Shown one piece after another: positions 1,877 through 49,697 of a stretch of 64,000 nucleotides of DNA. Every line of letters starts with the position of its first letter. Positions within the stretch are counted from its first letter, which is position 1. Origin of the DNA: an uncultured beta proteobacterium (GTDB taxonomy: Bacteria > Pseudomonadota > Gammaproteobacteria > Burkholderiales > Casimicrobiaceae). The DNA is taken from assembly GCA_963816925.1 (NCBI GenBank), contig CAWFMY010000020.1, positions 8,756-72,755 of the forward strand, given 5' to 3'. Under the pieces are notes generated by a model. It saw nothing but the letters and a program-made list of their open reading frames with translations, was not told the DNA's origin and ran no database searches. The translations under genes and the position numbers were made by a program.

Positions 1877-1883
1877 GACCGCG

Positions 1884-2805
1884 ATGCCGATGTCGCAGTT
1901 GCCCCCACAGGTTCACGTGTTCGTCCGCGACTGGCTGTCGTCCAACAACGTCGTCCTCAGGAGCCGCGACGGCCACGTCCTGATCGACACCGGATATTCG
2001 CGGCATGCGCCCATGACGCTCGCGCTGCTCGCGTCCGATCGCGGCATCCGCAACGATCCGCTCGCCTGGGTCGTCAACACGCACTGCCACTCCGACCACA
2101 TCGGCGGCAACGCTGCGCTCGCGGAGAAGTACGGATGCCCGATCGCGGTGCCCGAAGGCGAGGCACCGTTCATCGAGCGCTGGGACCAGAAGGCGCTGCT
2201 TTACGACTACTGCGACCAGCGCGCCGACCGCTTCATCGTGAGCCAGGCGCGTGCAACCCGACACGACGCATGTGTGGGGCGATCTCGAGTGGCGCGCGCT
2301 TGCGGCACCCGGACACGACATGGGCGCGCTCGTGTTCTTCAACCCCGAGCACGGGATACTGATTTCCGGCGACGCGCTCTGGGAGAACGGCTTCGGCATC
2401 GTGATGCCCCCGGAGGTCGACCCGGCCGCGCTGCCGGCGACGCGCGCAACGCTCGAAATGCTGGGCCGCCTCGCCATACGCGTCGTCATACCGGGTCACG
2501 GCGCACCCTTCGTCGACGTCGCGGCCGCGCTCGATCGCGCGATGCGCCGTGTCGATGCGTTCGAGGCCGAGCCGATGCGAATGGTGCGGCATGTACTGAA
2601 GGCGCTCCTCGCGTTTTCGCTGCTCGATCATCAGCAGCTGCTGCTGGCCGAACTGCCTTCGTACCTCGATCGCGTGGGCCTGTTTCGCGATTTCAACCGG
2701 CAGTTCTACCGGTTGCCGCCCTCGAAAATGGCCGCGATGCTGGTCGGTGAACTCGAGAAGTCCGGCGCGGTCAGACGCGACGACGGTTGGCTGCGGCCGG
2801 CGTAA
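1884..2805 (+). pseudogene. MBL-fold metallo-hydrolase, frameshifted as sequenced near 2249
   Basis: The N-terminal part with HCHSDHIGG (HxHxDH motif) is in the frame of ORF 1734..2750, starting at ATG 1884. The protein continues as QPDTTHVWGDLEWRALAAPGHD...VVIPGHG in ORF 2251..2805, a +1 shift. Confidence 0.8.
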
Positions 2806-2994
2806 GCGCCAGCCTGGTCATCCGCCGCCGCGGCTGCGCTAGAATACGCCCCGGTCCGATGTCCCCATTGTTGGAATAACTTCTCGAATCAACGTGTTTT
2901 CCACGCTAATGTCGACGACCGGTTTTGATCGCACGAATTCCGACGGCTTCCATTCCGCGCCGCTTTCCGATCGTCGTCCGGCGCGGGTCACGCG

Positions 2995-3817
2995 GTGAGC
3001 GAATTCCTCGACCATCCTGCGTTCCAGGGTGGCGTCGCCCCGTTCTTCGTGGCGCTGATCGTCGCCTTCGCCCTCGGGCGCACCCGATTCGTCTGGCTCG
3101 CGATCATGCCGGCCTACGCGACCATGGTGGCGCTCGACACGGGCTTCACGCTGTTCCCGCCGACCGTGGCACGCAAGACCTGGCTGATCGGGCTTCTCGC
3201 ACCGCTTGCAGGCGTCGCTGCCGACCGGTACCGGCGATCGTCGCGGCGTGTCGCGCCCGCGCTCGTCGCCGCCGCCAGCCTGCTCTCGCTCTGGGTATTT
3301 CGGTCCGTGCTGCAGAATCACCCGATCGCCGACGCCGTCGTCGCCGGCGCCGGCATTGCGGCGTTCGTCGCGGCGATGGTCGCGTCCGTCCTGCGACTGC
3401 GCAACGACGGCCTGGCGTGCGGAGCCGCCGGCTTTGGCCTCGGCATCGCCGCCGGCGTGGCAGGCATTTTGTCGGCGTCGATCGGCGCGCTCGTCGCGGG
3501 CGTTGCGATCGGGACGGCCTGTGCCGCGATGTTGCTGGTCCAGATCGCCTTGTCGCGGGCGCTCGCGCCCGGCTTCACCGGCGCGTTGCCGATAGGCCTG
3601 TTGATCGCCCTGATTGCCGCGGGAACGCAGCAACTCGCGCTGCTTCCCTGGTACGCGCTGCCGCTGCTGCTGCTCGTCCCGCTGGCGGTTTCGCTGCCGA
3701 CACCGAAACCGGGTTCGCTGTTCCCGCGTGCCGCCGTGCTATCCGCCTACGCGCTTGCTCGCCGCCGCGCTGCCCATCGCGGCCGCGTGGAATGCCGCGC
3801 GCACTTCCTTGCCCTGA
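2995..3817 (+). pseudogene. polytopic membrane protein of unknown function, probable frameshift near 3754
   Basis: The first ~250 codons of ORF 2995..4857 are a series of hydrophobic helices. The hydrophobic tail LLAAALPIAAAW and a stop at 3815-3817 are found in the +1 frame (ORF 3614..3817). As read, the ORF runs on into the next gene. Confidence 0.5.
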
Positions 3818-3839
3818 CCCGACCTCGCAGGAGACTCGC

Positions 3840-4429
3840 ATGTTCAAGCACCTGGCCACCCTCATCCTTGCCGCTGCTCCCCTACCCGCTCTCGCGGCGA
3901 CGGAGAGTCTATCCGCTCGACCCGCTGCACACGTCCGTTTCGTTTGCCATCGACCACCTCGGACTCTCGGTGATTCACGGCAGGTTCAGCAAATACTCCG
4001 GCAAGATTTCGATCGATCGCACGGCGAAGACCGGTGCGGTCGAGCTCGTTGTCGAGACCGCGTCGGTCGACACCAACGACAACGACAAGGGCAACCGGCC
4101 GCGTTCGCGCGACGAGCACCTGCGCTCGGCCGATTTCTTCAACGTCGCGGAGTTTCCGCGGATGACCTACAAGTCGACCAACGTCGTCTTTGCCGGCGAC
4201 ACCCCGACGGTCGTCGCAGGGCGACCTGACGCTGCTCGGCGTGACGAAGCCGGTGGCGATCACCGTGGAGCGCTTCAAGTGCAACCCCGCGACGGCGACC
4301 GCGAAGGAGCGTTGCGGCGGCAGCGCGAACGCAAGAATCAAGCGCTCCGACTTCGGCATGAAACGCGGAATTCCGTCCATCGGCGACGACGTCCTGCTGT
4401 CGTTCGGGTTCGAGGGCGACAAAGAATGA
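3840..4429 (+). pseudogene. YceI-family periplasmic polyisoprenoid-binding protein, two frameshifts (~3905 and ~4217)
   Basis: The signal peptide MFKHLATLILAAAPLPALAA starts at ATG 3840. The body VYPLDPLHTSVSFAIDHLGLSVIHGRF...MTYKSTNVVF is in the frame of ORF 2995. The C-terminus QGDLTLLGVTKPVAITVERFKC...GFEGDKE is in ORF 4190..4429. Confidence 0.8.
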
Positions 4430-4446
4430 CGTCCACCTCAGCAGAC

Positions 4447-4472
4447 AAAACCGGGCCGCGACCCGGTTTTTT
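4447..4472. terminator. bidirectional intrinsic terminator between the convergent yceI-like and marC-like genes
   Basis: Sequence aaaaACCGGGccgcgaCCCGGTttttt: a 6-bp GC stem flanked by an A-run and a T-run. Confidence 0.5.
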
Positions 4473-4489
4473 GTTGCCCTTCGCGAGCG

Positions 4490-5092
4490 CTATTTCGCGA
4501 GTTCGCCGACGAACGAGCGCACGCCCGACAGCAGCATCTCGACCGCGAGCGCCGTCAGCACGAGGCCCATCAGCCGCTCGAACGCGACCATCGCGCGTTC
4601 GCCAAGCCAGCGTTGCAGCCGGTCGGCGAGCGCCAGCACGAGGGTCGTCGCAGCCATCGCCAGCGTCAGCGCGAGGATCCAGCTGCCGATCTTCGCCGGA
4701 TCGCGCGAGGCCATCAGCATCACCGTGGCGAGCGCGGACGGACCGGCGATCGACGGGATGGCGAGCGGCACGAGGAACGGCTCGACGCCCGGCGGGTCGC
4801 CGAAGATGCCTTCGGGGCGCGGGAACACCATCCGGATCGCGATCAGGAACAGGATGATCCCGCCCGCGATCGTCAGCGACTCCTCGGACAGGTGGAGCCA
4901 CTGCAGAAAGGTCCGCCCCCCCAGCATGAACGCGACGAGGATGCCGTAGGCCGCCAGGCATTCGCGCAGCACGACCCGAAGCCTTCGCTCGGGCGCGACA
5001 TTCTTCAGCGCCGCGACGACGACCGGCACGTTGCCGAACGGGTCGATGACCAGCACCAGCAGGATCGTCGCGGAAAAGAGCTCGGCGTTCAT
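4490..5092 (-). CDS. MarC-family (UPF0056) integral membrane protein
   Basis: ORF 4490..5233. The likely start is the internal ATG at 5092 (MNAELFSATILLVLVIDPFGNVPV...). It has about six hydrophobic helices typical of the family. Confidence 0.85.
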   Translation of the reverse strand: MNAELFSATILLVLVIDPFGNVPVVVAALKNVAPERRLRVVLRECLAAYGILVAFMLGGRTFLQWLHLSEESLTIAGGIILFLIAIRMVFPRPEGIFGDPPGVEPFLVPLAIPSIAGPSALATVMLMASRDPAKIGSWILALTLAMAATTLVLALADRLQRWLGERAMVAFERLMGLVLTALAVEMLLSGVRSFVGELAK

Positions 5093-5247
5093 CGGCGCGG
5101 GGCGCGGTTCGTCGGACGGGCGCGCAGTATATCGCGCCCCTACCGGCGGAGCCCCGATATGGGGATAATCGCGGGTTTTGTGCTGGTCCGGCGGCACTCC
5201 CTTCGGAGCCCCACCGCCAGCAGTCGAATCCACAAGGAGCCTTGCGC

Positions 5248-7282
5248 ATGAAGCCGTCCTTATTCCTCGCCTGTTGCGCCAGTGTGGCTGCGGCGCCGCT
5301 GTTGGCCGCGGATCCTCCGCCCGCGGCGCTGCAATCCGGCATCGAGACCCAGTATTTCGACGCGAAGGTCCGCCCGGGCGACGATTTCTACAACTTCGTC
5401 AACGGCAAATGGCTCGCCACGACGACCATTCCCGAGGACAAGGCGAGCTGGGGTCCGGTCGGGATCCTCCGCCAGGAATCGCAGGAACGTCAGCGCAAGC
5501 TGATCGAGGACGCCGCAGCCACCACGACGGGCAGCGCCGAGGCGCGCAAGGTCGGCGATCTCTACAAGAGCTTCATGGACGAAGCACGACTCGAAACGCT
5601 CGGGCTGAAGCCGCTCGCGGCGCAATTCGCGGCGATCGACGCCGTCAAGGACAAGGCCGAGCTGCCGGCGTTGATCGCCCGCCTGCAGCAGATCGGCGTG
5701 ACCACGCCGTTCGACATCGACATCGACCAGGACAAGCGCAACTCCGCCGCCTATGTCGTCTATCTCTCCCAGTCCGGCCTCGGCCTCCCGGATCGCGATT
5801 ACTACATCGACGACAGCGACGCGCGGCTCGTCGGGATCCGGAAGAAATATGGCGAGCACATCGAGAAGATGCTGACGCTCGCGGGCAGCAAGAACGCGAA
5901 GCAGGAAGCCGCCGACATCCTCGCGCTCGAAACCGCCATTGCGCGCGTGCATTGGACCAAGGTGGAGTCGCGCGACCCGGTGAAGACGTACGAGAAAGTC
6001 ACCCTCAAGGACCTGCCGGGTGTGGCGCCGGGATTCGATTGGAAGGCCTACCTCGACACGAATGGCGTATCGGGCAAGGTCTCCGATCTCGTCCTCTACC
6101 AGGCGAGCTATCTCAAGGACTTCAGCGCGCTGTTCGCGAAGACACCGCTATCCACGTGGAAGGCCTACTTCAGGTGGGCGGTGCTGCGCGACTACGCGCG
6201 CTTCCTCGACAAGCAATACGTCGACGAGCGATTCGCGTTCTACGGCACGACGCTTTCCGGCGTCCCGCAAAACCGGCCCCGCTGGCAGCGCGGCGTCGGG
6301 CTGGTCGACGAATCGATCGGCGAAGCGCTCGGCAAGGTCTATGTGGACAAGTACTTTCCGCCATCGAGCAAGGCGCGAATGGAGAAGCTCGTCGCCAACC
6401 TGCTCGCCACTTACAAGCAGAGCATCGACGGCCTCGACTGGATGGGTGCGCAGACGAAGAAGGAAGCGCAGGCCAAGCTCGCGAAGATCACGCCGAAGAT
6501 CGGCTATCCGGCGAAATGGCGCGACTACTCGACGCTCGTCATCGCGCCGGACGACCTCGTCGGCAACGTGATGCGGGCTCGCCAATTCGAATTCAACCGC
6601 ATCGTTGCGAAGCTGGGCAAGCCGATCGACCGCGACGAGTGGTTCATGACGCCGCAAACGGTGAACGCCTACTACAACCCGCTGATGAACGAAATCGTGT
6701 TCCCGGCGGCCTACCTCGAGCCGCCGTATTTCAACCCGGCTGCGGACGACGCCGCCAACTACGGCGGGGCCGGGGCGACGATCGGCCACGAGATCAGCCA
6801 CGGCTTCGACGATTCAGGCAGCCAGTTCGACGGCGACGGCAACCTGCGCGACTGGTGGACGCCCGAAGACCACAAGCGCTTCGACGAAAAGACGAAGGCG
6901 CTGGTCGCCCAGTTCGACGCGTACAGCCCGGTGCCCGGCTACACCGTCAACGGCAAGCTGACGCTCGGCGAGAACATCGCCGACCTGTCGGGTCTCGCGA
7001 TCGCGTACAAGGCCTACCGGCTGTCACTCGGCGGCAAGGAAGCCCCGGTCATCGACGGCATGACCGGCGACGAGCGGTTCTTCCTGAGCTTCGCGCAAGG
7101 CATCGCGCGACAAGACGCGGGACGAGCAGACGATCGTCTATCTCAAGTCCGACCCGCATTCGCCCGATCATTTCCGCACGATCGGACCGCTGTCGAACCT
7201 CGACGCGTTCTACAAGACGTACAAGCTCAAGGACGGCGACAAGATGTTCCGCCTGCCGAAGGATCGTGTCTCGATCTGGTAG
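5248..7282 (+). pseudogene. pepO: M13-family zinc metallopeptidase (PepO / endothelin-converting-enzyme-like), frameshift near 7106
   Basis: ATG 5248 is preceded by AAGGAG and followed by a signal peptide. The zinc motif is GATIGHEISHGFD. After ...FFLSFAQGIA the conserved C-terminus RDKTRDEQTIVYLKSDPHSPDHFRTIGPLSNLDAFYKTYKLKDGDKMFRLPKDRVSIW* is in the +1 frame, with its stop at 7280-7282. Confidence 0.9.
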
Positions 7283-38345: not shown

Positions 38346-39122
38346 ATGTCGTCCGCACCTGAAGCTCCCGTCATTCCGGCCGCGTTGATCGGCCGCCTGC
38401 GCAAGGCGCGCTCGATGGCGGCGCTCACCGGCGCGGGAATCTCGGCGGAGTCAGGTGTCCCCACGTTCCGCGACGCGCAGACCGGCATGTGGGCGAAGTT
38501 CGACCCGCTCGAGCTCGCCACGCCCGATGCGTTCAGGCGCAACGCGAAGCTCGTCTGGGATTGGTATGCGTGGCGCCGCGAGCTCGTCGCGCAGGCGCAG
38601 CCCAACGCCGGCCACCGCGCGCTCGCCGCGATCGAAGCCGCGAATCCCGGTTTCCTGGTGATCACGCAAAACGTCGACGGCCTCCATCAGGCCGCGGGCA
38701 GCGCCAACGTGGTCGAGCTCCACGGCAACATCCGGCGCGTCAAGTGCTCGCGCGACGGCACCATCGTCGCGACGTGGGACGATTCCAGCCCGCGCGAGGC
38801 GCCGCGCTGCGCGCAATGCGGCGCGTTCCTGCGGCCGGATGTCGTGTGGTTCGAGGAGACGCTGCCCGACGATGCCCTCGTGCGGGCCGAGCACGCGGCG
38901 CGCGACTGCGACGTGCTGCTGGTCGTCGGCACCGCCGCCGAGGTCTATCCCGCGGCGATGCTTCCCACCTACGCGCGGCACCATGGGGCCGCGATCGTCG
39001 AGATCAATCCGAGTCCGACGCGGCTTTCCGATCGCGTCGACTACACGCTGCGCGGACCGTCGGGCGTTGTGCTGCCGGCGCTCGTCACCGCCGTGTGGGG
39101 CGACGTTCCGGCGCCCCGATAG
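38346..39122 (+). CDS. cobB: NAD-dependent protein deacylase (Sir2/CobB family)
   Basis: TGAGISAESGVPTFRD, QNVDGLH and Zn-ribbon cysteines (KCSRDG...CAQCG). This is the last ~258 codons of ORF 36279..39122, from ATG 38346. Confidence 0.9.
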   Translation: MSSAPEAPVIPAALIGRLRKARSMAALTGAGISAESGVPTFRDAQTGMWAKFDPLELATPDAFRRNAKLVWDWYAWRRELVAQAQPNAGHRALAAIEAANPGFLVITQNVDGLHQAAGSANVVELHGNIRRVKCSRDGTIVATWDDSSPREAPRCAQCGAFLRPDVVWFEETLPDDALVRAEHAARDCDVLLVVGTAAEVYPAAMLPTYARHHGAAIVEINPSPTRLSDRVDYTLRGPSGVVLPALVTAVWGDVPAPR

Positions 39123-39129
39123 CACGGCG

Positions 39130-40533
39130 TCACGCCTTCGGCGGCTCCGGCGGCTTCGCGTCCTCGTCAGGGGCCGTCGCGGCCATCTCGCGCGACAGCC
39201 GCCACGCCATCCATCCCAGCACCAGCACGCCGAGGACGAGCGCGGCCCACAGCACCCAGCGCTTGACGTCGGGCGGCTTCTGGAGCCGCTCCGGCCCGCC
39301 AAGCACGATCTGCGGCGCGCCCGCGGCGATCGCGGCAGTGGCGACGCTCGCGGGAAGCTCGCGCATGCTGTCGTAGCCGGGGACCAGCGTCGAAATCGGC
39401 AACGCGCCCGCGCTCGCCGCAAGATTTCCATAAGCGAGCGTGAAGGGCGCGGGCCCGCGCGCCGCGAACACGATCTCCTGCGGCTGCCATCCTGCGCGCA
39501 ACGGCGGCGGCGCCTGCCCCGTCGCGCCCGATCGCGGGTCGACGTGGAGCAGCCAGTACCGGCGTTCGTTCCCGGCGACCGGAAACGGCGGGCTCGTTAT
39601 GTCGCCGCTCTGCTGCGCCAGCCGATAGAACACCGTCGACCCTGCGAACTGCCAGGGCTCCGTGGGGCTGGAGCGCGCCGACAACGTCGCCGGCACGATC
39701 GAATTCGGCGTCGCGAGGTCGACCACGATGCGGTCGACGGGAAAGGCACCGCCGAGATCGTATTCGAAATCGCCCTCGTGGTCGGCGACGCGCGTTCCCG
39801 TGGCGCCGCGCCACTGCCGCGGCGTGTCGACCGTGCGCTCGCCGTATTCGCCGCTCACGGCGCCGAACTCGATGACCGGGCGATCGGCGCCCCAGGACAG
39901 GCGAAGGAATTTTGCCTTGATCGGCGCGAACTCGACGCGGTTGCGCGTCAGGCGCTGCCCGGCATACTCGATGCTGACGAGCGTTGCGTCGGTCGAAACG
40001 TTTCGCCAGACGGCGAGATCGTCGCTCGCGTCGATTGCAAAGCGCATGGTCGTCGCGCCGGTCGTTTCCGGCAACGCGAACGTCAGCGCCACGAGCGGCT
40101 CGTCGAGCGCGGACGTGTCGAGCACGTATCCGCCCAGCACCTTGCCCGGCGCCGGCTCGCCATCGGCGGCATTCACGCTGACCGTCGTTCCGGCCGCGTT
40201 CCGGGTGACCGAAAGCGCAAGGCCCGTCGCGTTCTGCCGGTACCGATCCACATGGAGCGGGAACATCGGCAACGGCACCGGCGGCGGACGCTCGCGCGGC
40301 ACCGCGCGGCGCGGCACGAGGGCGAAAGGAACGAGCTCGCCATCCGCGTTGAAGACACGCAGGTCCGAGAGATCGCGGTGCGCGACGCCTTCGTAGACGG
40401 CGGCGGGCAGCGCGACGCGCTGGAACGCGGCCGGCGCGCCGGGAGTAAGCGCGACGCCGAACGCGTAGTCGGCAGGCCGCTCGGCGTGCGCCGATGCGGC
40501 GAACAATGCGGCGAGAAGAAGCGGGCGAATCAT
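39130..40533 (-). CDS. DUF3999-like secreted protein with a C-terminal membrane anchor (467 aa)
   Basis: The ATG at 40533 overlaps the upstream stop (ATGA). Signal peptide MIRPLLLAALFAASAHA, a beta-rich body and the C-terminal helix WVLWAALVLGVLVLGWMAW. The family name comes from my recollection of its usual pairing with DUF2339. Confidence 0.7.
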   Translation of the reverse strand: MIRPLLLAALFAASAHAERPADYAFGVALTPGAPAAFQRVALPAAVYEGVAHRDLSDLRVFNADGELVPFALVPRRAVPRERPPPVPLPMFPLHVDRYRQNATGLALSVTRNAAGTTVSVNAADGEPAPGKVLGGYVLDTSALDEPLVALTFALPETTGATTMRFAIDASDDLAVWRNVSTDATLVSIEYAGQRLTRNRVEFAPIKAKFLRLSWGADRPVIEFGAVSGEYGERTVDTPRQWRGATGTRVADHEGDFEYDLGGAFPVDRIVVDLATPNSIVPATLSARSSPTEPWQFAGSTVFYRLAQQSGDITSPPFPVAGNERRYWLLHVDPRSGATGQAPPPLRAGWQPQEIVFAARGPAPFTLAYGNLAASAGALPISTLVPGYDSMRELPASVATAAIAAGAPQIVLGGPERLQKPPDVKRWVLWAALVLGVLVLGWMAWRLSREMAATAPDEDAKPPEPPKA

Positions 40534-43388
40534 GGCGAGTCCTTCCTGCGCGGCGGCACCGGCGCGAGATATCCGATCAACAGCAACAGCAGGCCGACGC
40601 CGATGAACGACACGATCCGCGTTATCGTCCCGACCTGCGCCAGCTCGACCAGGAACAGCTTGGCGACCACCACGCCGAGGAGCGCCGCGCCCGCCATCCA
40701 CGGCGCGCGCCACTGCCTGCGATTGGCGTACGCCATCGTCGCCAGCGCGAGCGACGACCAGAGCAGCGACAGCACCGCCTGCACCAGCGTCGAATTCCAC
40801 AGCGCGTGCGGCGTGTACGGGACGTCGTACCAGAAATGGATCGACCGCAGCGCGATCGCATTGATCCACAGGAACGCGAGCGCGCACAGCATGACGACGT
40901 CGGCATTTCCTGGCAGTTCATCGAAAGTCTGCGGGTACGTGCGCCGAACGCGCACCGCCCAGGTCGCCAGGGCGAGCAGGATCGCGGCCTGCGTGAGGTC
41001 CAGCGGATTGAGCAACGGCAGATACGGCAGCGGCGCCGGATTGCCGCTGCCATGGACATTGGCGGCAATCGACCAGATCACCAGCAGCGCGGCCACGGGA
41101 ACCGCCCCCAGCAGGAAATACCCCCGCCGATGCACGCCGACGGGCCAGCTCGTTCCGGCGGCAAGCTCGCTCACGATGCCGAGCCCGAGCGCCGGGACGA
41201 GACCCCAGGGCACCGCGCTCCAGACGCCATGGCTGTACTCGATCCGGCTGCCCGCCCATGACAGTTCATCCGCGATCAGCAGCAGCACGAGCCAGAAGAG
41301 TCCCGCGTGCTGGAGCTCGTATGTCGTCGCAACGCGCTCGTCGCCGGCGTGCTGCCGATCGAACCAGCGCAACAGTCCCACGACCGCGACGACCGCGAAT
41401 ATCCACGCGAGGTAGCCACCATGCGCAAAGAGATGATCGACCGTCATGTAGCCGCGGCCGATGGCCACGAAGGCGATGACGAGCAGGGCCGGCAGCAACA
41501 GCAACGCCGGGACGCGGGCGATCGGCCAGCGCAGTTTCGCTTCCAGCACGACGAACAGCACGGCCGTCGCGGCGAGGAACGCGACCAGCGCCGGAACGCG
41601 CATGTCGAACGGGACGAAGCGGTCGATTTCGCGCCATCCCGCCAGCAGCCACCACGCCATTCCCCAGGCGAACGCGCACGGCGCCGCGGCGTGCTCGCCC
41701 GCCGGGACGCGGTCCTGATGCCGCAGCAGTATCCACGACGTGAAGAAACCGGCAACGGAGACGAGCAACGCGCCGACGAAGGCGCTGTTGGCGAGCGGGA
41801 TCGACGACGCCGGGCCGGCGGGCGCCCACAGCGACAGCCCGAGCAGGAACGCGATGCCGGCGCCGACCTGCAGCAGCAAACCAAATCCGCGCACGACGCC
41901 GCGCGAAAGCCGCACGCCCGCCCACACGATCGCCGCGCCCTCGATCGCCCAGGTCGCCGAGGTCCAGCGCGCGTCGAGCCCGAGCGGAACCGCCAGCGTC
42001 GCGAATACGATGCCGAGCGCCAGGAAACTCTCCACCAGCAGGCGGATGTCGTCGCGGCGGCGCGAGTAGAGGAAGCGGCCCAGGATCAGGTAGACCGCGG
42101 ACATCGCCAGCGCGCTGTATGCCATCCCGTATTCGATGTCGCGCACGAGCCCGCTCTGCAGGCCGGCGGCGACGAGCGGCGTTCCGAAGACGAGGCCGGC
42201 ATCGACGTAGTCGCGCACTTCGACCGACCGGCGCAGCGCATACAGCACCGCGATCGCGACGTAGAACAGGAAGAACAGGATCAGGAACGGTTCCGTCGTC
42301 GCAAAATCCTCGGGCCGGTATCGCGTCACCCCCCAGAACGTCCCGACGAGGAAGGTGAACGCGAATCCCAGCAGGTTCAGCACGCGCCACGCCTTGAACC
42401 ACGCGATGCCGAGAATGCCCGCGTTGAGCAACGCGTAATAGCTGAACAGCATCACGTGGTTGCCGGTGTTGTTCGACGTGAGGATCGGCGCGAGGAAGCC
42501 GCCGGCGACGGCGAGCGCCGCCAGCGAAATCGCATCCTGGCGTACCGCGAGGAAGGAGGACAACGCGGAGATCGCCACGAGCAGCCCGAAGGCCGCGGCG
42601 GGCGAGACGAGCGCGTAGAGACGCAGCGCGCCGAACACGGTCATGTAGAGGACGCCGACGCCGCCGCCCTGCAGCACCATCGCGTAGGCGCGCCGGCTCT
42701 CGCGCAGCCGCCAGCCGATCACGAGCAGCGCGACGCCGCCCAGCGCGATGCCGGCGAGGCGAAGCGAGATCGGCACCTGCACGTGCTCGACCGCGTACTT
42801 CAGCAGGAAGCCGACGCCGATGAACAGGAGCACGACACCGAGGCGTGCCAGCGTGTTGCCGCCGACGATCCACGCCCAGATCGGATTGGGCGGCACCTCG
42901 GGGGCCGGCTCGAAGCGCGGCGCAGGCGGCGCATCCGATCGCGCAGCGTACGAAGCGGGCGCAAGGCTCATTGTGCCGTCGGCATTGACCGAAGCGACGG
43001 CCGCCTCGGCCTCGGCCGCCGATGGCGGCGCAGGCTGCGGCGCCGGCTGGGGCAAGTCGCGGTCGGCGATCACCGACGGCACCACCGTTTCGGGCGGCGG
43101 CACGGCCGGTGCTGTGGCGACGGCCGGGGGCGCGTCGATGGCGCGCGCACCCATCGGCAACGCGCGCTCCAGTTCCGCGACTCGGCGCTCGAGCATTGAA
43201 ACGCGATCGGCCAGAGGCCGCACGGGCTCCGCCACGACCGGAAAGGATGCCGTCGGGCGCGCCGCTTCCGGACGCATGTTGGAATCGCGCTCCTTGCGAC
43301 TGCGGATGATGAAGCCGACGAACGCGCCGACGAGTCCTCCGACGAGCGCGCCTCCGCCGCTCCCCAGGAGCAGACCTCCGATCAACAT
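40530..43388 (-). CDS. DUF2339-like giant polytopic membrane protein (952 aa; the true start may be 43419)
   Basis: An N-terminal Gly-rich helix is followed by the coiled-coil-like RVSMLERRVAELERAL, a Pro/Ala linker and more than 20 hydrophobic segments. GGGAGG plus ATG at 43419 lie one frame off. Confidence 0.75.
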   Translation of the reverse strand: MLIGGLLLGSGGGALVGGLVGAFVGFIIRSRKERDSNMRPEAARPTASFPVVAEPVRPLADRVSMLERRVAELERALPMGARAIDAPPAVATAPAVPPPETVVPSVIADRDLPQPAPQPAPPSAAEAEAAVASVNADGTMSLAPASYAARSDAPPAPRFEPAPEVPPNPIWAWIVGGNTLARLGVVLLFIGVGFLLKYAVEHVQVPISLRLAGIALGGVALLVIGWRLRESRRAYAMVLQGGGVGVLYMTVFGALRLYALVSPAAAFGLLVAISALSSFLAVRQDAISLAALAVAGGFLAPILTSNNTGNHVMLFSYYALLNAGILGIAWFKAWRVLNLLGFAFTFLVGTFWGVTRYRPEDFATTEPFLILFFLFYVAIAVLYALRRSVEVRDYVDAGLVFGTPLVAAGLQSGLVRDIEYGMAYSALAMSAVYLILGRFLYSRRRDDIRLLVESFLALGIVFATLAVPLGLDARWTSATWAIEGAAIVWAGVRLSRGVVRGFGLLLQVGAGIAFLLGLSLWAPAGPASSIPLANSAFVGALLVSVAGFFTSWILLRHQDRVPAGEHAAAPCAFAWGMAWWLLAGWREIDRFVPFDMRVPALVAFLAATAVLFVVLEAKLRWPIARVPALLLLPALLVIAFVAIGRGYMTVDHLFAHGGYLAWIFAVVAVVGLLRWFDRQHAGDERVATTYELQHAGLFWLVLLLIADELSWAGSRIEYSHGVWSAVPWGLVPALGLGIVSELAAGTSWPVGVHRRGYFLLGAVPVAALLVIWSIAANVHGSGNPAPLPYLPLLNPLDLTQAAILLALATWAVRVRRTYPQTFDELPGNADVVMLCALAFLWINAIALRSIHFWYDVPYTPHALWNSTLVQAVLSLLWSSLALATMAYANRRQWRAPWMAGAALLGVVVAKLFLVELAQVGTITRIVSFIGVGLLLLLIGYLAPVPPRRKDSP

Positions 43389-43461
43389 GCCGACGATGAC
43401 ACCGATTGACCGTTGCCATTGCGCCCTCCCTTAGTCGCGACAGCCTGCGCTCGCCGCCGCG

Positions 43462-43956
43462 TCACTTCTTCCGTGGTTCGCCGAGTGCCTTCAACGTCCC
43501 GTCGCGCAACCCGGTGAGGATCGCCTCGCCGTCCGGCGCGACCCGGAATTCGCCAAAACGGGCGTTGGCGAAATCGCTCGCGCGCCCTTCCTCGAAGAAG
43601 TAGCCGTTGGTCGCGAACTTGGGCTCACCGTGACGGACGCGATAGCGGACCCTGACCTCGTCGGCGGCCAACGCCGCACCGTCGTCGAGGCGGACAAAGG
43701 TGGCGACTCCGCGCGGGTCCAGCGCGAGCACGATCCGTCCGTCCCCGCTTGCGGCCGGCACGGACTGAAACCCGTCGCGCGCGGCCTTGAAGCGCAGGGC
43801 CATGTAGTCGCCCTGCATCAGCGAACGCGGGTCGACCGGCGTGAGTTCGAGCAGCACGACGCGGCCCTCCTCGAGCAGGCGCTCGCGGGAGGCGATGACG
43901 AGGTTTACGGCAGCCAGCAGGGCAACCGCATTCAGCACGACGATCCATTTACGCAT
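43462..43956 (-). CDS. GDYxxLxY-motif membrane-anchored periplasmic protein (164 aa)
   Basis: MRKWIVVLNAVALLAAVNLVIA anchor. The motif is visible as MQGDYMALRF. The start overlaps the upstream gene by 8 nt. Confidence 0.75.
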   Translation of the reverse strand: MRKWIVVLNAVALLAAVNLVIASRERLLEEGRVVLLELTPVDPRSLMQGDYMALRFKAARDGFQSVPAASGDGRIVLALDPRGVATFVRLDDGAALAADEVRVRYRVRHGEPKFATNGYFFEEGRASDFANARFGEFRVAPDGEAILTGLRDGTLKALGEPRKK

Positions 43957-45028
43957 GGCGGGCCTCCGATGACGACGACGCGACCCAGCGTCGCACCGCG
44001 AAGCGCGCGGCGAGCAGCACTGCGCCGGCCGCGAGGAGCGACGCGGACTTCGCCAGCAGCGTGGCATCGAGCGTGAAGTAGTAGTGGGAAAGCGCACCGG
44101 CCATGGCGACGATACCGAGCCCCATCAGCGCGCGACGGCCCGACGCGAATGCGAGCACGACGACGATCAGCGCGGCGATGAGCGCGGTCACCTGCCACGC
44201 GGCGGCGACCAGCGCCGCGCAGGCAGCAAGGGTCATCATTCCGGCGCGCCCCCCGAGCCGCACGCCGTTGCGCGCGAGGAGCACGGCTACCGTCCCGATG
44301 AAGATGACGGCGACGAGGCCGCTCCCGCGCCATGCCGAGGCATGTTCGGGGACTTCCCGCGCACGGAAGATGTCGCCCAGCGAACCGAACAGCAGGTTCG
44401 CAGGAACCAGCAGAAGCAATCCGAGCGCGAGGCCCGCGCTGATGGGCTGCCAGATGTCGGCGCGCGGGGAAAGGGACGCCTCGTTGAGCTCCACCGCGAC
44501 GAAGGCGCCCGCGAGCACCGCCGGAAACAGGAAGGCGACGTGTCCGATGGACAACGCAAAAAGCAGCGCCACCGCGGCGGCGAGCGTCGACCACGTGCGA
44601 TGGATCGAATACGGCACCACCAGCGCGAGAACGACTTCGAAGACGACGACGACCGCGAAGAAGACGGGCTCGTCGTGGCGGCCAAGCATCATGTACAGGC
44701 CGCCGACGACCAGCACCTGCCCCGCGAGGCTCAGCGCGAGCGCGAACTGCGCGAAGAAGTCGCTCTCGGCGAGGGTCCACAACATCGCGATCGCCGCGCC
44801 ACACAGAAGGAGCCCCGTCGGCAATGCCGCACCTTCGTTCCGGAATACGGATGCGATCGCCACGCCGACGAACCCCAGCAGGAAGCACGCGGCAATCCAA
44901 CCGGCGATGCCGATCATCGTCTTCACGTACCACGGCGCCGGTTCGCTCGTCATCGCGGGGGGATCGCCCTCGGTCAGGCCGGCGGCGCGCAGCCGGTCCC
45001 AAAGCGCCAGCAGGTTCGGCGAAGTCAT
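43949..45028 (-). CDS. DUF4401-like polytopic membrane protein (359 aa)
   Basis: The ATG at 45028 overlaps the upstream stop (ATGA), and there are about 10 hydrophobic helices. The family name is inferred from its position between DUF2157-like and GDYxxLxY genes. Confidence 0.65.
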   Translation of the reverse strand: MTSPNLLALWDRLRAAGLTEGDPPAMTSEPAPWYVKTMIGIAGWIAACFLLGFVGVAIASVFRNEGAALPTGLLLCGAAIAMLWTLAESDFFAQFALALSLAGQVLVVGGLYMMLGRHDEPVFFAVVVVFEVVLALVVPYSIHRTWSTLAAAVALLFALSIGHVAFLFPAVLAGAFVAVELNEASLSPRADIWQPISAGLALGLLLLVPANLLFGSLGDIFRAREVPEHASAWRGSGLVAVIFIGTVAVLLARNGVRLGGRAGMMTLAACAALVAAAWQVTALIAALIVVVLAFASGRRALMGLGIVAMAGALSHYYFTLDATLLAKSASLLAAGAVLLAARFAVRRWVASSSSEARHA

Positions 45029-45996
45029 GTCCGCCCCTCCGCGGCAATCCCGCGCAGCCACCACGCGCCCAGCGTCGCGCCCCCGATCACCGCGAGCCCG
45101 ATCAGGAGGAAGCTGCCCGCATCGCCGTGGCGCAGCATCAGCTTCGTCAGCAGCGCCGTCATGACGACGATCACGGAAAGCACGGCGCCCGCGAGGATGA
45201 AGAGGTCCACCGAGCGACGCCGATAGGCCCACCAGACGGCCGCGAGCCAAAGCGCATACGCGACGAGGGGCCAGGCGCCGGTGCGCGAGAAATTGACGCC
45301 GGACCAGATGGCGAGCGACGTGACGGTGCCGCCGCTCGCGAACGCCACGACGCGGATGGCCCAGCGCTCGCGCAGCCATGTCATTCCCGCCGCGGCGAGG
45401 ATCTCCCACACAATCAGCGCCGCGGTGTCGAGCGCGAACACGAGCCACACGATCCCGAGCGGGCTGAACAGGAGGCCGAACAGCCCGTCGCGCGCGTCGA
45501 AATACAGATAGATCGCCATATGAAGGAGCGCGAGCCAGAGGAGCACGAGCGCCGGCAGGCGCGCCACCGCGACCCACGCCGTGATGGCGAGCGCCCACGC
45601 GACGAACAGCTCGAAGTTGTCGGCCCCCGTCTGGTACACCTGTCCGACGAGCGCGAGCAGCGCGCCGGTGAAGACCGCGGCGGCGAGGAGTGCCGCCTTG
45701 CCGACAGTCGATTCGAGGCCGAACCGCCAGCAGACCGCGATCGCCACGACGATGGGAATCTCCGCCAGCGCGAATTTGGCGAACCGCCCGAGCTCCTGCC
45801 AGTTGAACGCGCCGAAGAAGATGGCCCCGGCGGCGAGGAGCAGCACCCCCAAACCGAGCAGCATGCGATCGACGAATTGCCGCCATCGCGCGGCATCCGG
45901 CGTCACGCCGGCCAGCCGCAGCGCCGGCGGCACGTCCGCCGGCGCGAGGCGCCGCTGCCGTGCCCAGTCGAAGATCGCATTCCGTTCGCCGCCCAT
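45025..45996 (-). CDS. DUF2157-like polytopic membrane protein (323 aa)
   Basis: A soluble N-terminal ~40 aa (MGGERNAIFDWARQRRLAPADVP...) is followed by about 9 hydrophobic helices. Confidence 0.65.
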   Translation of the reverse strand: MGGERNAIFDWARQRRLAPADVPPALRLAGVTPDAARWRQFVDRMLLGLGVLLLAAGAIFFGAFNWQELGRFAKFALAEIPIVVAIAVCWRFGLESTVGKAALLAAAVFTGALLALVGQVYQTGADNFELFVAWALAITAWVAVARLPALVLLWLALLHMAIYLYFDARDGLFGLLFSPLGIVWLVFALDTAALIVWEILAAAGMTWLRERWAIRVVAFASGGTVTSLAIWSGVNFSRTGAWPLVAYALWLAAVWWAYRRRSVDLFILAGAVLSVIVVMTALLTKLMLRHGDAGSFLLIGLAVIGGATLGAWWLRGIAAEGRT

Positions 45997-46033: not shown

Positions 46034-47917
46034 CTATTTCCGGTCGCCGCGCAACGCGAGCACGGTCGCCTGCAGTCCCTCGAGCGTCACGCGCTCCGCC
46101 GGGACCGGCGGCGCCGCGACCAGCGCGATGCGGGAAAACACGCCGCGCCACCGCCGCATCGCCTTGCCGTCATGCGAGCGGCTGAAGAAGCTCCCCCACA
46201 AGCCGCGCAGCGCGAGCGGGACCACGGGCACCGGCGTCGTTTCGATGATCTGCTGGATGCCGGGACGGAACCGATTGAGCTCGCCGGTATCGGTCAGCTT
46301 GCCTTCCGGAAAAAGGCCGACGATCTCGCCCGCCGCGAGCGCGTTGGCGACCTCGGCGAATGCCCGGTCCTTCATCGCCGCGTCTTCCTTCGCGGGCGCG
46401 ATGGGGATCGTGCGCATCGTCCGGAATATGAACGACAGGACGGGCACCTTGAAGATGCGGTGGTCCATCACGAAACGGATCGGCCGCCGCACGCAGGCGG
46501 CGATGACGACCGCGTCGACGAAGCTCACGTGGTTGCAGACGACGACGCACGGGCCGGTCTCGGGGATCAGGTCGAGTCCTTCCTTTTCCACGCGGTAGAA
46601 CGTGTGGATCAGGAGCCACGCGAGGAACCGCATCAGGAATTCGGGCACGAGCTTGAAGATGAAGAGCGCGACCGCAGCATTCATCAGCGCATTGACGAGG
46701 AACAGCTGCGGAATCGACAACCCGGCCCCGAGCAGGCCGATCGCGATGCCGGCGGAGGCGACGATGAAGACCGCGTTCAGGATGTTGTTGGCGGCGATGA
46801 TCCGCGAGCGATGCGACGGCGCCGAGCGCTCCTGGATCAGCGCGTAGAGCGGAACGCAGTAGAACCCGCCGAAAACACCGATGAGGACCAGGTCGGCGGC
46901 GACGCGCCAGTGCGCGGGCGCCGAGAAAAACACATCGAGACCCGCCAGCTCCGTCGCCTTGAGCGGGCTGCTCGCGAGCCACAGGTCGACCGCGAACAAC
47001 GTGAGCCCGATCGAGCCGAACGGGACCAGCCCGATCTCGATCTTGCGCCCCGACAGCCGCTCGCACAGCAGCGAACCGGTGCCGATGCCGACCGAGAACA
47101 GCGCCAGCAGGAACGTCACGACGTGCTCGTTGCCGCCGAGGACGTCGCGCGAGAAGCCCGCGAACTGCGCGAGGAAGATGGCGCCGTAGAACCAGAACCA
47201 CGAGATCCCGAGCATCGACAGCCACACGACGCGGTTCTCCTGCGCGACGACGAGGTTCCGCCACGTCTCCGAGAACGGGTTCCAGTTGATCGCGAGGCCG
47301 GGCGCAACCGCCGGCGTGTGGGGAATGCCGCGGCTCACGAGATAGCCGGCCACGGCGATGGCGATCGCCAGGGCGCCCGCGAGGAGCGGCCCGTTGGGTT
47401 CGACGGCGACGACAACCCCGCCCGCGATCGTGCCGAGCAGGATCGCGACGAACGTGCCCATTTCGACCAATCCGTTGCCGCCGACGAGTTCCTCGGGCTT
47501 CAAGTGCTGCGGCAGGATCGCGTACTTGACCGGGCCGAACACCGCCGAGTGAACGCCGAGCAGCGCGAGGGCGGCGAACATCAGCACCAGGTCCTGGCGC
47601 CAGAAGCCGGCGAGGCCGACAACCATGATCGCGATTTCGAACAGCTTGACCCAGCGGATGAGACGCGATTTCTCGAACTTGTCGGCGAGCTGGCCGGCGG
47701 TCGCCGACAACAGCACGAACGGCGCGATGAACACCGCGCCCGCGAGGTTGACGAGCGCGTTGGGCTCGAGCGTGGTGAGGCGCGCCGCATGGAACGCGAC
47801 GAAGATGATCAGCGCGTTCTTGTAGACGTTGTCGTTGCCCGCGCCGAGGAACTGCGTCCAGAAGAACGGCGCGAAACGGCGCTCGCGGAGGAGGTCGAAC
47901 TGGTTGGGTTCGTGCAT
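46034..47917 (-). CDS. fusion of an MFS lysophospholipid transporter (LplT-like) and a PlsC-type acyltransferase (627 aa)
   Basis: The N-terminal 12-TM MFS part begins ...FAPFFWTQFLGAGNDNVYKNAL... The C-terminal domain has the acyltransferase HX4D motif (CNHVSFVDAVV) and FPEGKLT. Confidence 0.85.
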   Translation of the reverse strand: MHEPNQFDLLRERRFAPFFWTQFLGAGNDNVYKNALIIFVAFHAARLTTLEPNALVNLAGAVFIAPFVLLSATAGQLADKFEKSRLIRWVKLFEIAIMVVGLAGFWRQDLVLMFAALALLGVHSAVFGPVKYAILPQHLKPEELVGGNGLVEMGTFVAILLGTIAGGVVVAVEPNGPLLAGALAIAIAVAGYLVSRGIPHTPAVAPGLAINWNPFSETWRNLVVAQENRVVWLSMLGISWFWFYGAIFLAQFAGFSRDVLGGNEHVVTFLLALFSVGIGTGSLLCERLSGRKIEIGLVPFGSIGLTLFAVDLWLASSPLKATELAGLDVFFSAPAHWRVAADLVLIGVFGGFYCVPLYALIQERSAPSHRSRIIAANNILNAVFIVASAGIAIGLLGAGLSIPQLFLVNALMNAAVALFIFKLVPEFLMRFLAWLLIHTFYRVEKEGLDLIPETGPCVVVCNHVSFVDAVVIAACVRRPIRFVMDHRIFKVPVLSFIFRTMRTIPIAPAKEDAAMKDRAFAEVANALAAGEIVGLFPEGKLTDTGELNRFRPGIQQIIETTPVPVVPLALRGLWGSFFSRSHDGKAMRRWRGVFSRIALVAAPPVPAERVTLEGLQATVLALRGDRK

Positions 47918-47932: not shown

Positions 47933-49150
47933 TCAGGTGGGGTCGACGAAAAACGGCTGCGTCTCGAACACGCCGCGCGAGAAACGCGCGCTTCCCGCTG
48001 CGAGACTGCGTTTCAGGACAAAATCGAAGAGCAGCGCATTATGCTCGCGGATCTCGCGCAGCACCGGCACGGCGTCGGGCGGCAGCAGGCCTCGCCCCGC
48101 CAGCAGGTCCGGCGAAATCAGCGGCGGGATTCCCGGCAATGGGTAATCCGATCCGTTGAGGAGCCGCGAATGCCAGTCGGCGCGTTCGAGAAGCGTGCGC
48201 AGCACGTCGCCGCGGTTGGTCAGCGTGACGGCCGAGATGTCGCCGTACACGCGCCCCTTGAAGGCCGGTGCATCCATCAGTCGCGCGAAAAGTTGAAGAT
48301 TCGGCACGAGCGCGTCGGCGCCGCCGCGATCGAGGTCGCGCCCATTCCCGAGCGACGCGCAATGGGCGACGATGACCCGCACGCCCGCGTCGAGCGGCCG
48401 GCGGAGTCGAAGCGGATTGCCGAGCGACTCGTCGTGACCGCGCACCGCACGCTCGTCGCCCGCGTGGGAAATGAGCGGCAGGCGCAGCGCCGCGAGCTTC
48501 GCGTAGAACGCGTCGCACGCGGGCGCCGCTGGGTCGATGTTCTGCGCCGAGGGCAGCCACTTGACCGCGCGCGCGCCGCGCGCCGCCGCCCATTCGAGGC
48601 GTTCCTCGGCGTCCTTCGCGTACGGATGCACCGAGGCCGCCCACTCGAAGCGATCCCGATTGCGCGATGCCACGGCAGCGGCATAGGCGTCGGGAACGTA
48701 GAACGTCGATCGCTCGATCAGCGGGGCCCCGGCCTCGTCGCGCGCCCAGTCGAACGCGAACAGCAGGAACTTCGCGCCCGGAGGAAACGTCGCGCACTGG
48801 TTTTCGAGGCGCTCGACCACGCTCGCGTCGACACGGCCGGGCGCGTCGTCCACGCAACCCGCATTCAGGTAAAACATCCGCTGCACGAATTGCTGCGGCT
48901 GAAGCAGGCTCCCCAACCCCGGATTGATCCAGAGTCCCGCGCCGGAATCGCCATTGCCGAAAAGGTGGCAGTGAACATCCCAGCACTTCGCCGGATCGAC
49001 GCCCTGCCACGCAGCCCTGACAAGCGGATGCGCGGCAAGCGCCTCGGGCAGCGCCGGGCGGCACGCGTTGAACAGGCCCTCGCGCAACGACAGACCGCAG
49101 CCAGAGGCGGCCGCGCCGGCGGCGCACGCGAGGAAGTTACGCCGGTTCAT
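47933..49150 (-). CDS. exported metal-dependent amidohydrolase-fold protein (405 aa)
   Basis: Twin-arginine-like signal MNRRNFLACAAGAAASGC with a possible lipobox Cys. WDVHCHLFG and ...VIVAHCAS... are typical of TIM-barrel amidohydrolases. Confidence 0.75.
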   Translation of the reverse strand: MNRRNFLACAAGAAASGCGLSLREGLFNACRPALPEALAAHPLVRAAWQGVDPAKCWDVHCHLFGNGDSGAGLWINPGLGSLLQPQQFVQRMFYLNAGCVDDAPGRVDASVVERLENQCATFPPGAKFLLFAFDWARDEAGAPLIERSTFYVPDAYAAAVASRNRDRFEWAASVHPYAKDAEERLEWAAARGARAVKWLPSAQNIDPAAPACDAFYAKLAALRLPLISHAGDERAVRGHDESLGNPLRLRRPLDAGVRVIVAHCASLGNGRDLDRGGADALVPNLQLFARLMDAPAFKGRVYGDISAVTLTNRGDVLRTLLERADWHSRLLNGSDYPLPGIPPLISPDLLAGRGLLPPDAVPVLREIREHNALLFDFVLKRSLAAGSARFSRGVFETQPFFVDPT

Positions 49151-49207: not shown

Positions 49208-49516
49208 TCACTGGTCACGCAGGAAATCGAGCACATCGGTCAGCGCCGCGCGCACGGCGTCCGGATCGGGCCAATACCAGACTTCCTTGCCGATCTTTTC
49301 GCACTTCAGCACGCCCGCGTCGCGCAGGGTCCGAAGGTGGTGCGAAACGGCCGAGCGGGACAACGTGGAGGCCGCGACGATCTGGCCGACGTTGAGGCGC
49401 TCGCCGGGCTCGAACATCAGCAGGATCCGCTGCCGGTGCGGATCACCCAGCGCGACGAACATTCCGGCCGTCTGGCGCCAGGCGCGGGGGATTGCACGGG
49501 CATAACTCGGTCGCAT
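49208..49516 (-). CDS. ArsR/SmtB-family HTH transcriptional regulator (102 aa)
   Basis: ...FVALGDPHRQRILLMF...LNVGQIVAASTLSRSAVSHHLRTLRDAGVL... winged helix. Confidence 0.85.
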   Translation of the reverse strand: MRPSYARAIPRAWRQTAGMFVALGDPHRQRILLMFEPGERLNVGQIVAASTLSRSAVSHHLRTLRDAGVLKCEKIGKEVWYWPDPDAVRAALTDVLDFLRDQ

Positions 49517-49575: not shown

Positions 49576-49697
49576 AGTCATATCCTACCGGGATGGATTC
49601 GCGCTTGTCAACTAGCCGTGTGGCCGATGCCGGAGCGGCCGACGAACGGCACGCCACGCTACAATCCGGGCGGCAGCTCTTCCGTCCAAGGCATCCG

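Follow-up and report, generated by a model that had tools for sequence, protein, structure and literature searches.

Arc3, the antagonism resistance cluster 3 of Pseudomonas aeruginosa, consists of Arc3A (PA5114) and Arc3B (PA5113) and is a genetically and lipidomically characterized defense against phospholipase toxins of the type VI secretion system in Pseudomonas (Ting et al., eLife 2022, PMC8926400). It is one of the few known defenses against type VI phospholipase effectors that are not immunity proteins. Among the genes of P. aeruginosa, arc3A matters most for survival of the Burkholderia thailandensis type VI phospholipase Tle3, and without it lysophosphatidylethanolamine (LPE) and monolysocardiolipin (MLCL) build up under Tle3 attack (PMC8926400). 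Arc3A and Arc3B co-immunoprecipitate—as shown in P. aeruginosa—and the arc3A mutant of this species is complemented by homologues of other species, including Burkholderia cenocepacia (PMC8926400). The biochemical mechanism of Arc3 is unsolved; its route is independent of Aas, and aas is both a published neighbor of arc3 in many bacteria and a co-defense factor (PMC8926400). An independent study from 2025 likewise identifies arc3A and aas as genes that confer protection, here from the lipase effectors TseL and Tle1 (PMC12663445). Homologues of Arc3A are defined by PF10101 (DUF2339), and the homologue of Arc3B is the adjacent PF13163 (DUF3999) protein (PMC8926400). The locus compared with this system here lies on a contig of an uncultured member of the Casimicrobiaceae (Burkholderiales), of which a stretch of 64,000 nucleotides (nt), the window in the following, was analyzed. 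It holds five open reading frames (ORFs), termed g1 to g5, on the minus strand between positions 39130 and 45996: a triplet of membrane protein genes (g1–g3) and an Arc3A–Arc3B pair (g4 and g5).

The triplet features the families PF09925 (DUF2157), PF14351 (DUF4401), and PF14345 (GDYXXLXY), which carry the COG name ‘uncharacterized membrane-anchored protein’. Literature searches by family name, Pfam accession, and COG number return incidental mentions only, among them a Fusobacterium pull-down list. The family DUF2157 is stated to include the membrane helices at the N terminus of LiaF and has been united with LiaI in a sensory domain termed ‘LiaI-LiaF-TM’ (Ravi et al. 2024, PMC11237479).

As judged by domain content and gene order, the region is probably an operon headed by arsR that serves the control of phospholipase and lysophospholipid damage at the inner membrane, with separable modules set on an arsR-aas core. 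The part comprising Arc3AB and aas is already known. The triplet embedded in an arsR-aas operon, the modular permutation, and the hypothesis that results on the role of three widespread domains of unknown function (DUFs) were not found in the literature.

Arc3A, Arc3B, and Aas of the window

The genes of the window are g1 (45025–45996; 323 amino acids (aa); DUF2157) and g2 (43949–45028; 359 aa; DUF4401), both encoding polytopic membrane proteins; g3 (43462–43956; 164 aa; GDYXXLXY); g4 (in-frame ORF 40530–43388, ancestral start 43419; 952 aa; DUF2339); and g5 (39130–40533; 467 aa; DUF3999). The pairs g1/g2 and g4/g5 each overlap by an ATGA and g2/g3 by 8 nt, while g3 and g4 are separated by a gap of 73 nt, or of 42 nt if g4 starts at the upstream ATG 43419. 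The G+C content at the third codon position is 0.84–0.90 in g1–g5 compared with 0.49–0.78 in the overlapping ORFs; hence, the minus-strand frames are genuine genes, and the long ORFs that overlap them in other frames or on the opposite strand are shadows due to high GC. The coordinates, sizes, and junctions given in an earlier note, which had been made from the sequence alone, agree with the ORFs and with this base composition. Its family guesses are likewise confirmed by profile hidden Markov model (HMM) searches of Pfam, in which all five families lie far above the gathering cutoffs: DUF2157 in g1 with E = 1.9e-29; DUF4401 in g2 with E = 8e-53; GDYXXLXY in g3 with E = 1.5e-34; DUF2339 in g4 with E = 4.8e-176 over model positions 1–659 of 659, in addition to a weak N-terminal glycine zipper; and DUF3999 in g5 with E = 9e-113. 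The sole NCBIfam match of g1–g5 is a weak, sub-threshold one between the N terminus of g4 and a thylakoid membrane protein family. Hydropathy yields 7–9 hydrophobic segments for g1, 9–12 for g2, and 19–26 for g4, consistent with the about 9, about 10, and more than 20 helices counted in the earlier note, and single membrane anchors at the N terminus of g3 and the C terminus of g5. The motifs GDYMALRF (g3 residue 49) and RVSMLERRVAELERAL, a short coiled coil (g4 residue 62), are present. The claim that the region encodes only uncharacterized proteins stands for g1–g3, for which comparison with characterized families in Pfam and NCBIfam returns DUF models only, and falls for g4 and g5, which are assigned to the published Arc3A/Arc3B defense.

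The assignment of g4 to Arc3A and of g5 to Arc3B is made because the PF10101 match and the adjacent PF13163 match fit the criteria of Ting et al.; on this basis the two proteins are members of the Arc3A and Arc3B families, with aas alongside. g4 shares 57% identity with the B. cenocepacia chromosome-2 homologue over the DUF2339 part. By hydropathy, it has the unusually many, dense membrane segments characteristic of Arc3A, and the PF13163 gene lies directly beside it, the start of g5 overlapping the stop of g4 (ATGA). No relatives of Arc3A or Arc3B are found in the PDB by sequence. The locus resembles that of P. aeruginosa in having a full-length PF10101 protein, an overlapping PF13163 protein with a C-terminal helix, and aas at the locus. 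However, P. aeruginosa Arc3A has 35 predicted membrane segments—more than the hydrophobic segments of g4—and in Pseudomonas, Gac/Rsm controls the arc3 cluster, which adjoins estA, whereas the run of genes in the window is headed by an ArsR-family regulator. A further difference is the three-gene triplet between aas and arc3A.

The start of arc3A is apparently frameshifted in the window. Arc3A of three related loci (L001, L002, and L162) starts with MATV(I/V)GL(I/V)VGM... from an ATG behind a GGGAG-type ribosome-binding site. The window keeps the ATG at 43419 together with a GGGAGG ribosome-binding site but carries one extra base near 43405–43408; therefore, this ATG is out of frame, and the conserved N terminus continues in another frame. 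An in-frame start comes only with the ATG at 43388, and no obvious ribosome-binding site precedes it. This +1 frameshift may stem from an error in the assembly, or it may be a genuine 5′ lesion that costs ten residues of the glycine-zipper helix.

The Arc3B protein of the window features a signal peptide, MIRPLLLAALFAASAHA/ERP, without a lipobox cysteine, and the same is true of 62 aligned relatives. P. aeruginosa Arc3B, in contrast, is predicted to be N-terminally lipidated and anchored in the outer membrane; since the signal peptide lacks the lipobox cysteine, the window protein would not be an outer-membrane lipoprotein and would be tethered by its C-terminal helix only. N-terminal lipidation is a trait of P. 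aeruginosa Arc3B and not part of the Pfam-based definition of the family. The C-terminal membrane helix has its hydropathy peak at residues 426–444 and spans residues 423–452 in the AlphaFold2 (AF2) model, which is otherwise all-beta (predicted local distance difference test, pLDDT, of 85.9). A Foldseek search with this model returns the neuropilin b1b2 domains and the C domains of factors V and VIII with E ~2e-4 and a probability of ~1; the template modeling scores are low because the domain orientations differ. The model thus predicts a periplasmic protein of tandem beta-sandwiches, similar to discoidin, F5/8 type C, and carbohydrate-binding module (CBM) domains, with its C-terminal helix as the tether to the inner membrane. 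There are discoidin C domains that bind phospholipid membranes, and the discoidin-like domains of Arc3B may, by analogy, do the same.

The gene aas (46034–47917, minus strand), located 37 nt upstream of g1, encodes a putative LplT-like MFS flippase fused to a PlsC-type acyltransferase, as identified with Pfam and NCBIfam. The Pfam domains MFS_1 (residues 52–381) and Acyltransferase (residues 442–570) follow each other in a single polypeptide. The protein matches the N-terminal 595 of 1140 positions of the NCBIfam model for acyl-[ACP]--phospholipid O-acyltransferase (PRK06814) with E = 3.7e-169, and the LplT model with E = 1.2e-31. Both scores are below the equivalog cutoffs (565 versus 1349 bits for PRK06814 and 110 versus 297 bits for LplT)—in the former case because the protein holds only the N-terminal half of the model. 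It is hence assigned, by domain architecture and not by equivalog score, as an LplT–Aas fusion that lacks the acyl-acyl carrier protein (ACP) synthetase domain. P. aeruginosa PA3267 is alike, with MFS and PlsC-type acyltransferase in one polypeptide and no acyl-ACP synthetase domain, whereas Escherichia coli Aas and the homologues of the Halomonadaceae carry this AMP-binding domain.

The triplet and its gene neighborhoods

The triplet protein g3 has a nearly invariant polar cluster of D42, R44, S45, Q48, D50, Y51, E100, and E123, and g1 bears the conserved motif GQxYQTGAD...LF..WA. In the AF2 model of g3 (pLDDT 80), a membrane helix is followed by a small beta domain, and g3 is accordingly modeled as an N-terminal membrane anchor with a small periplasmic beta domain. 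A profile search of the PDB with the g3 family yields nothing credible, only a designed repeat protein with E = 0.012.

When one genome per GTDB species is scanned with an alignment of diverse GDYXXLXY sequences, 80 triplet loci are obtained; loci are designated by L-numbers. They span beta-, gamma-, alpha-, and deltaproteobacteria, Acidobacteriota, Chloroflexi, Acidimicrobiia, and Campylobacterota, and the order g1–g2–g3 is kept in essentially all of these loci that have enough flank, as judged by iterated HMMs. The triplet of the window shares with the known ones its three families, their order, and overlapping junctions, and the GDYXXLXY motif and the nearby polar residues are conserved. 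Fusions point in the same direction. A phmmer search with g3 of 1.84 billion cluster representatives at 50% identity finds 2,403 relatives, and about one fifth of the best 150 of these are long proteins. Twenty long representatives were checked by Pfam: 16 have DUF4401 N-terminal to GDYXXLXY—comprising full-length two-domain fusions and shorter proteins with partial DUF4401—and four of the 16 have DUF2157 as well; the remaining four have GDYXXLXY only. Because the gene order is conserved across phyla and natural fusions are frequent, the triplet is an obligate, self-contained, and widespread unit. Fusion of GDYXXLXY to enzyme domains was considered and rejected, since the 20 long representatives hold only fusions within the triplet and tandem GDYXXLXY copies; the 650-aa protein P0276 contains four tandem GDYXXLXY matches and no further Pfam domain.

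The pair was surveyed separately with 80 metagenome loci anchored on Arc3A, at 41–74% identity. Arc3B follows Arc3A in 71 of the 72 loci in which this can be tested. For aas, 63 of the 80 loci are determinable and 17 are not: in 29 the gene is found directly upstream of arc3A, and from 34 it is absent. That these families tend to form a triplet and a pair, as stated in the earlier note, is borne out by both surveys. The two units seldom meet: Arc3A adjoins the triplet in three of the 80 triplet loci (L001, L002, and L040), with Arc3B in one determinable case, and the triplet is found in none of the 80 Arc3A loci. The former count was checked with a broader 80-sequence HMM, by inspection of ORFs longer than 450 aa that are rich in transmembrane segments, and by a Pfam scan of the nearest neighbors. 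All three screens give only L001, L002, and L040, and distant DUF2339 genes hidden beside triplets are thus rejected; the other membrane-segment-rich ORFs near triplets are COX1, AcrB, SulP, MatE, and ABC permeases. A locus from a metagenome-assembled genome of the Myxococcales (L049) has, at 951–6311 on the plus strand and upstream of the triplet, a 1,787-aa stop-to-stop ORF with ~25 hydrophobic segments and no Pfam match, which may be a high-GC artefact or a giant membrane protein.

Relatives of the window share a syntenic neighborhood that reads, in precomputed Pfam annotation, thyA / arsR-aas ... SIR2-aroC-xseA-glnS-M48 peptidase. Within it, one Burkholderiales lineage holds every module combination downstream of arsR-aas. 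The order aas-triplet-arc3AB occurs in the window, L001, L002, L161, and L162; aas-arc3AB-triplet in L165, where the arc3B stop and the DUF2157 start overlap in a GTGA, and in L166; and aas-arc3A-triplet without arc3B in L040, with a gap of 5 nt between the modules. The triplet alone follows aas in L163 and L164 and also in L026, L031, L035, and L046, with L006 having the triplet ~1.6 kb beyond aas, and arc3AB alone follows aas in many metagenome loci. The triplet is hence found inside the aas operon in three arrangements of this neighborhood, namely aas-triplet-arc3AB, aas-arc3AB-triplet, and aas-arc3A-triplet, each with tight or overlapping junctions. Most genomes have a triplet that stands alone, whereas in the window and this one lineage it sits inside an arsR-aas(-arc3AB) operon. 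The triplet and the Arc3AB pair are separable modules and not one conserved assembly: in this soil Burkholderiales lineage, the modules downstream of an arsR-aas core are interchangeable and comprise Arc3AB, the triplet, or both of them in one order or the other.

Two of these loci have peculiarities of their own. The intergenic region between aas and arc3A in L165 (~495–640) carries about five tandem repeats of ~32 nt, GGTTC(C/G)C(G/A)CGACGCA(G/C)TGG(C/A)AGAAA..., which are absent from the window. At 3549–5944 of L166, the gene caller splits arc3B in two and fuses the distal part to DUF2157 as a 644-aa product. If true, this would be a fusion between the pair and the triplet modules; most likely, it is due to frameshifts in a long-read metagenome assembly.

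Across the 80 triplet loci, aas is the commonest conserved neighbor: 14 of them have it within 10 kb, compared with ~0.4 expected for a single-copy gene. Eight of the 14 belong to Betaproteobacteria with aas on the same strand, and in six of these loci aas is the immediate upstream gene, as confirmed by an independent Pfam check. The other six belong to the Halomonadaceae and have a full-length Aas (MFS–acyltransferase–AMP-binding) 2.8–7.4 kb away on the opposite strand. By guilt by association, this neighborhood is suggestive of a shared function of triplet and Aas. In the Halomonadaceae (L029, L043, L053, L057, and related loci), genes for an MscS-like channel and an alpha/beta-hydrolase (BAAT/S9-like) come after the triplet, and beyond them lies the convergent full-length aas; the esterase near the triplet echoes estA beside arc3 in P. 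aeruginosa.

Candidate functions of the triplet

In the established LplT/Aas mechanism, lysophospholipids are flipped from the periplasmic leaflet and then re-acylated. Transferred to the window, Aas would flip lysophospholipids from the periplasmic leaflet and re-acylate them, and Arc3AB would keep lysophospholipids from accumulating by an Aas-independent route, as it does in Pseudomonas and presumably in the window organism. The functions of Aas and Arc3 would be conserved in this uncultured Burkholderiales organism and the genes co-transcribed. The triplet would be a third self-contained module of three parts in the inner membrane, exposing to the periplasm a small beta domain whose polar pocket is invariant. 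It may sense or handle lyso-lipids and damaged lipids at the periplasmic face, acting independently and not as part of an Arc3 complex. A process shared by the triplet with Aas and Arc3AB at the periplasmic membrane face is a possibility given somewhat less than an even chance on gene neighborhood. Rated about as likely is the specific form of this idea, in which the triplet would be an Arc-like inner-membrane lipid-damage module alongside Aas and parallel to Arc3, with the GDYXXLXY pocket binding or processing a lipid head group. The placement gives a first functional clue for the triplet, that is, for three widespread domains of unknown function, and the natural module combinations offer a set for studying how bacteria cope with lysophospholipid stress. 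Should the link of the triplet be spurious, the annotation is still corrected, with two of the five proteins and their upstream neighbor placed in a published defense pathway.

Several observations weigh against a joint role of these modules in lipid-damage control. The triplet is missing from all 80 Arc3A loci, B. cenocepacia has arc3AB without aas and without the triplet within ~7 kb, and a copy on a Pantoea plasmid (megaplasmid) as well as L168 carry the triplet alone in unrelated contexts. About 80% of the diverse triplet loci have heterogeneous, unrelated neighbors, including zinc alcohol dehydrogenases, MscS-like channels, LysR regulators, GGDEF/EAL proteins, and ABC transporters. The tight linkage of triplet and aas is limited to one betaproteobacterial lineage, and the looser association in the Halomonadaceae may be mere synteny; phylogenetically, there are only one or two independent triplet–aas associations. 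On the protein level, homology of g1 or g2 to Arc3A repeats or Aas is rejected by profile–profile comparison (hhalign probability ≤2.3% with alignments of 78–83 sequences), and g3 has no informative fold match in the PDB (best Foldseek E = 0.63). Lastly, there is the apparent frameshift at the start of the window arc3A.

These points bear on the first alternative, in which the triplet is unrelated to Aas and Arc3—a transporter or housekeeping complex resident in the operon—and the lipid defense consists of g4, g5, and aas only. The variable, unrelated neighbors of most loci across phyla, the behavior as a stand-alone set of three genes, and the origin of the tight aas linkage from one lineage speak for it. 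Nonetheless, aas is the top neighbor of the triplet, well above chance; the triplet stays in the aas operon of that lineage through at least two rearrangements and through gain and loss of arc3AB; and in a second family, the Halomonadaceae, a full-length Aas is likewise encoded a few kb from the triplet. An unrelated triplet is considered less likely than not.

Considerably less probable is a role of the triplet as an envelope-stress sensor or scaffold, in which DUF2157 would, in analogy to LiaI/LiaF, report membrane damage or recruit a repair factor. The assignment of DUF2157 to the LiaI-LiaF-TM domain (Ravi et al. 2024, PMC11237479) and the location in a membrane-damage operon fit this role, and the DUF2157 protein and the LiaI-LiaF-TM proteins of Lia/Psp systems—likened by that literature assignment—are both polytopic and associated with membrane damage. 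However, Lia/Psp systems have LiaH/PspA or LiaRS as a partner, whereas none occurs at the window locus, and the conserved neighbors of the triplet include no PspA/LiaH, kinase, or other output partner. In addition, the polar pocket that is invariant in the periplasmic GDYXXLXY domain is more reminiscent of a ligand or catalytic site.

The proposal of the earlier note that g1–g5 form one large machine of the inner membrane and periplasm, counting more than 40 transmembrane helices plus two periplasmic subunits with anchors, draws on tight junctions inside each module, on modules that abut in two orders in relatives with tight junctions (the GTGA overlap of L165 and the 5-nt gap of L040), and on the DUF3999–DUF2157 fusion reported by the gene caller for L166, but it is improbable, as the two modules occur independently of each other (together in 3 of 80 triplet loci and in 0 of 80 Arc3A loci), the close syntenic relatives L163 and L164 lack the pair, many aas-arc3AB loci lack the triplet, the 20 long representatives fuse triplet members only and never Arc3A or Arc3B, the L166 fusion lies in a frameshift-prone long-read assembly in which arc3B itself is split, and Arc3A functions when expressed alone in a heterologous host (PMC8926400). 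Co-occurrence of all five genes is in essence confined to close relatives within one Burkholderiales lineage—an outcome that the note itself had named as speaking against the machine—and a single five-protein assembly is therefore unlikely. This leaves separable modules on an arsR-aas core as the preferred reading.

Extent of the probable operon and its flanks

The co-directional, closely spaced run of minus-strand genes does not end at g1, where the five-gene module had been delimited, but extends upstream through aas, a 405-aa gene, and arsR as far as 49516. The 405-aa gene (47933–49150, minus strand) lies 15 nt upstream of aas and is called hydrolase-like after the names of cluster members, one of which is named ‘predicted TIM-barrel fold metal-dependent hydrolase’ by the Joint Genome Institute (JGI). 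The protein features a signal resembling those of twin-arginine translocation (Tat), a possible lipobox (AASGC), and an HxH motif (HCH); searches of Pfam, NCBIfam, and the PDB give no match except a weak one to TAT_signal. Between arsR and aas, this gene is also present in L096, an aas-arc3AB locus, and is absent from this position in L162–L164.

The first gene of the run is arsR (49208–49516, minus strand), which is spaced by 57 nt from the 405-aa gene and encodes a predicted ArsR/SmtB-family helix-turn-helix (HTH) regulator (Pfam HTH_5 and HTH_20; NCBIfam HTH_metalloreg above cutoff). An ArsR-family homologue lies directly upstream of aas in ~20 related loci of every module type. Below threshold, the regulator of the window also resembles the SdpR family of autorepressors; the membrane immunity protein SdpI controls SdpR in Bacillus. 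Upstream of arsR, a consensus match to a sigma-70-like promoter, TTGACA-18-TAGGAT, at 49582–49611 on the minus strand is the candidate promoter of the operon and the only such site found between 38.5 and 50 kb, where shuffled sequences give 0.4 expected. A scan of the same interval finds no terminator-like sites in the intergenic gaps of the run. Since the gaps measure at most 73 nt, no terminator-like site interrupts them, and the sole promoter-like site lies upstream of arsR, it is plausible that the eight genes from 49516 to 39130 form one operon. The earlier suggestion of a single operon thus holds up as plausible, with an extent of five genes being too short.

No Rfam elements are found within 38–50.5 kb of the window. 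At the distal end of the run, a gene for a Sir2-family deacetylase (38346–39122, plus strand) converges on arc3B, which ends at 39130 on the minus strand. The two stop codons are separated by ~7 nt and, therefore, leave no space for separate terminators. The neighbors SIR2 and aroC recur in relatives of the window locus.

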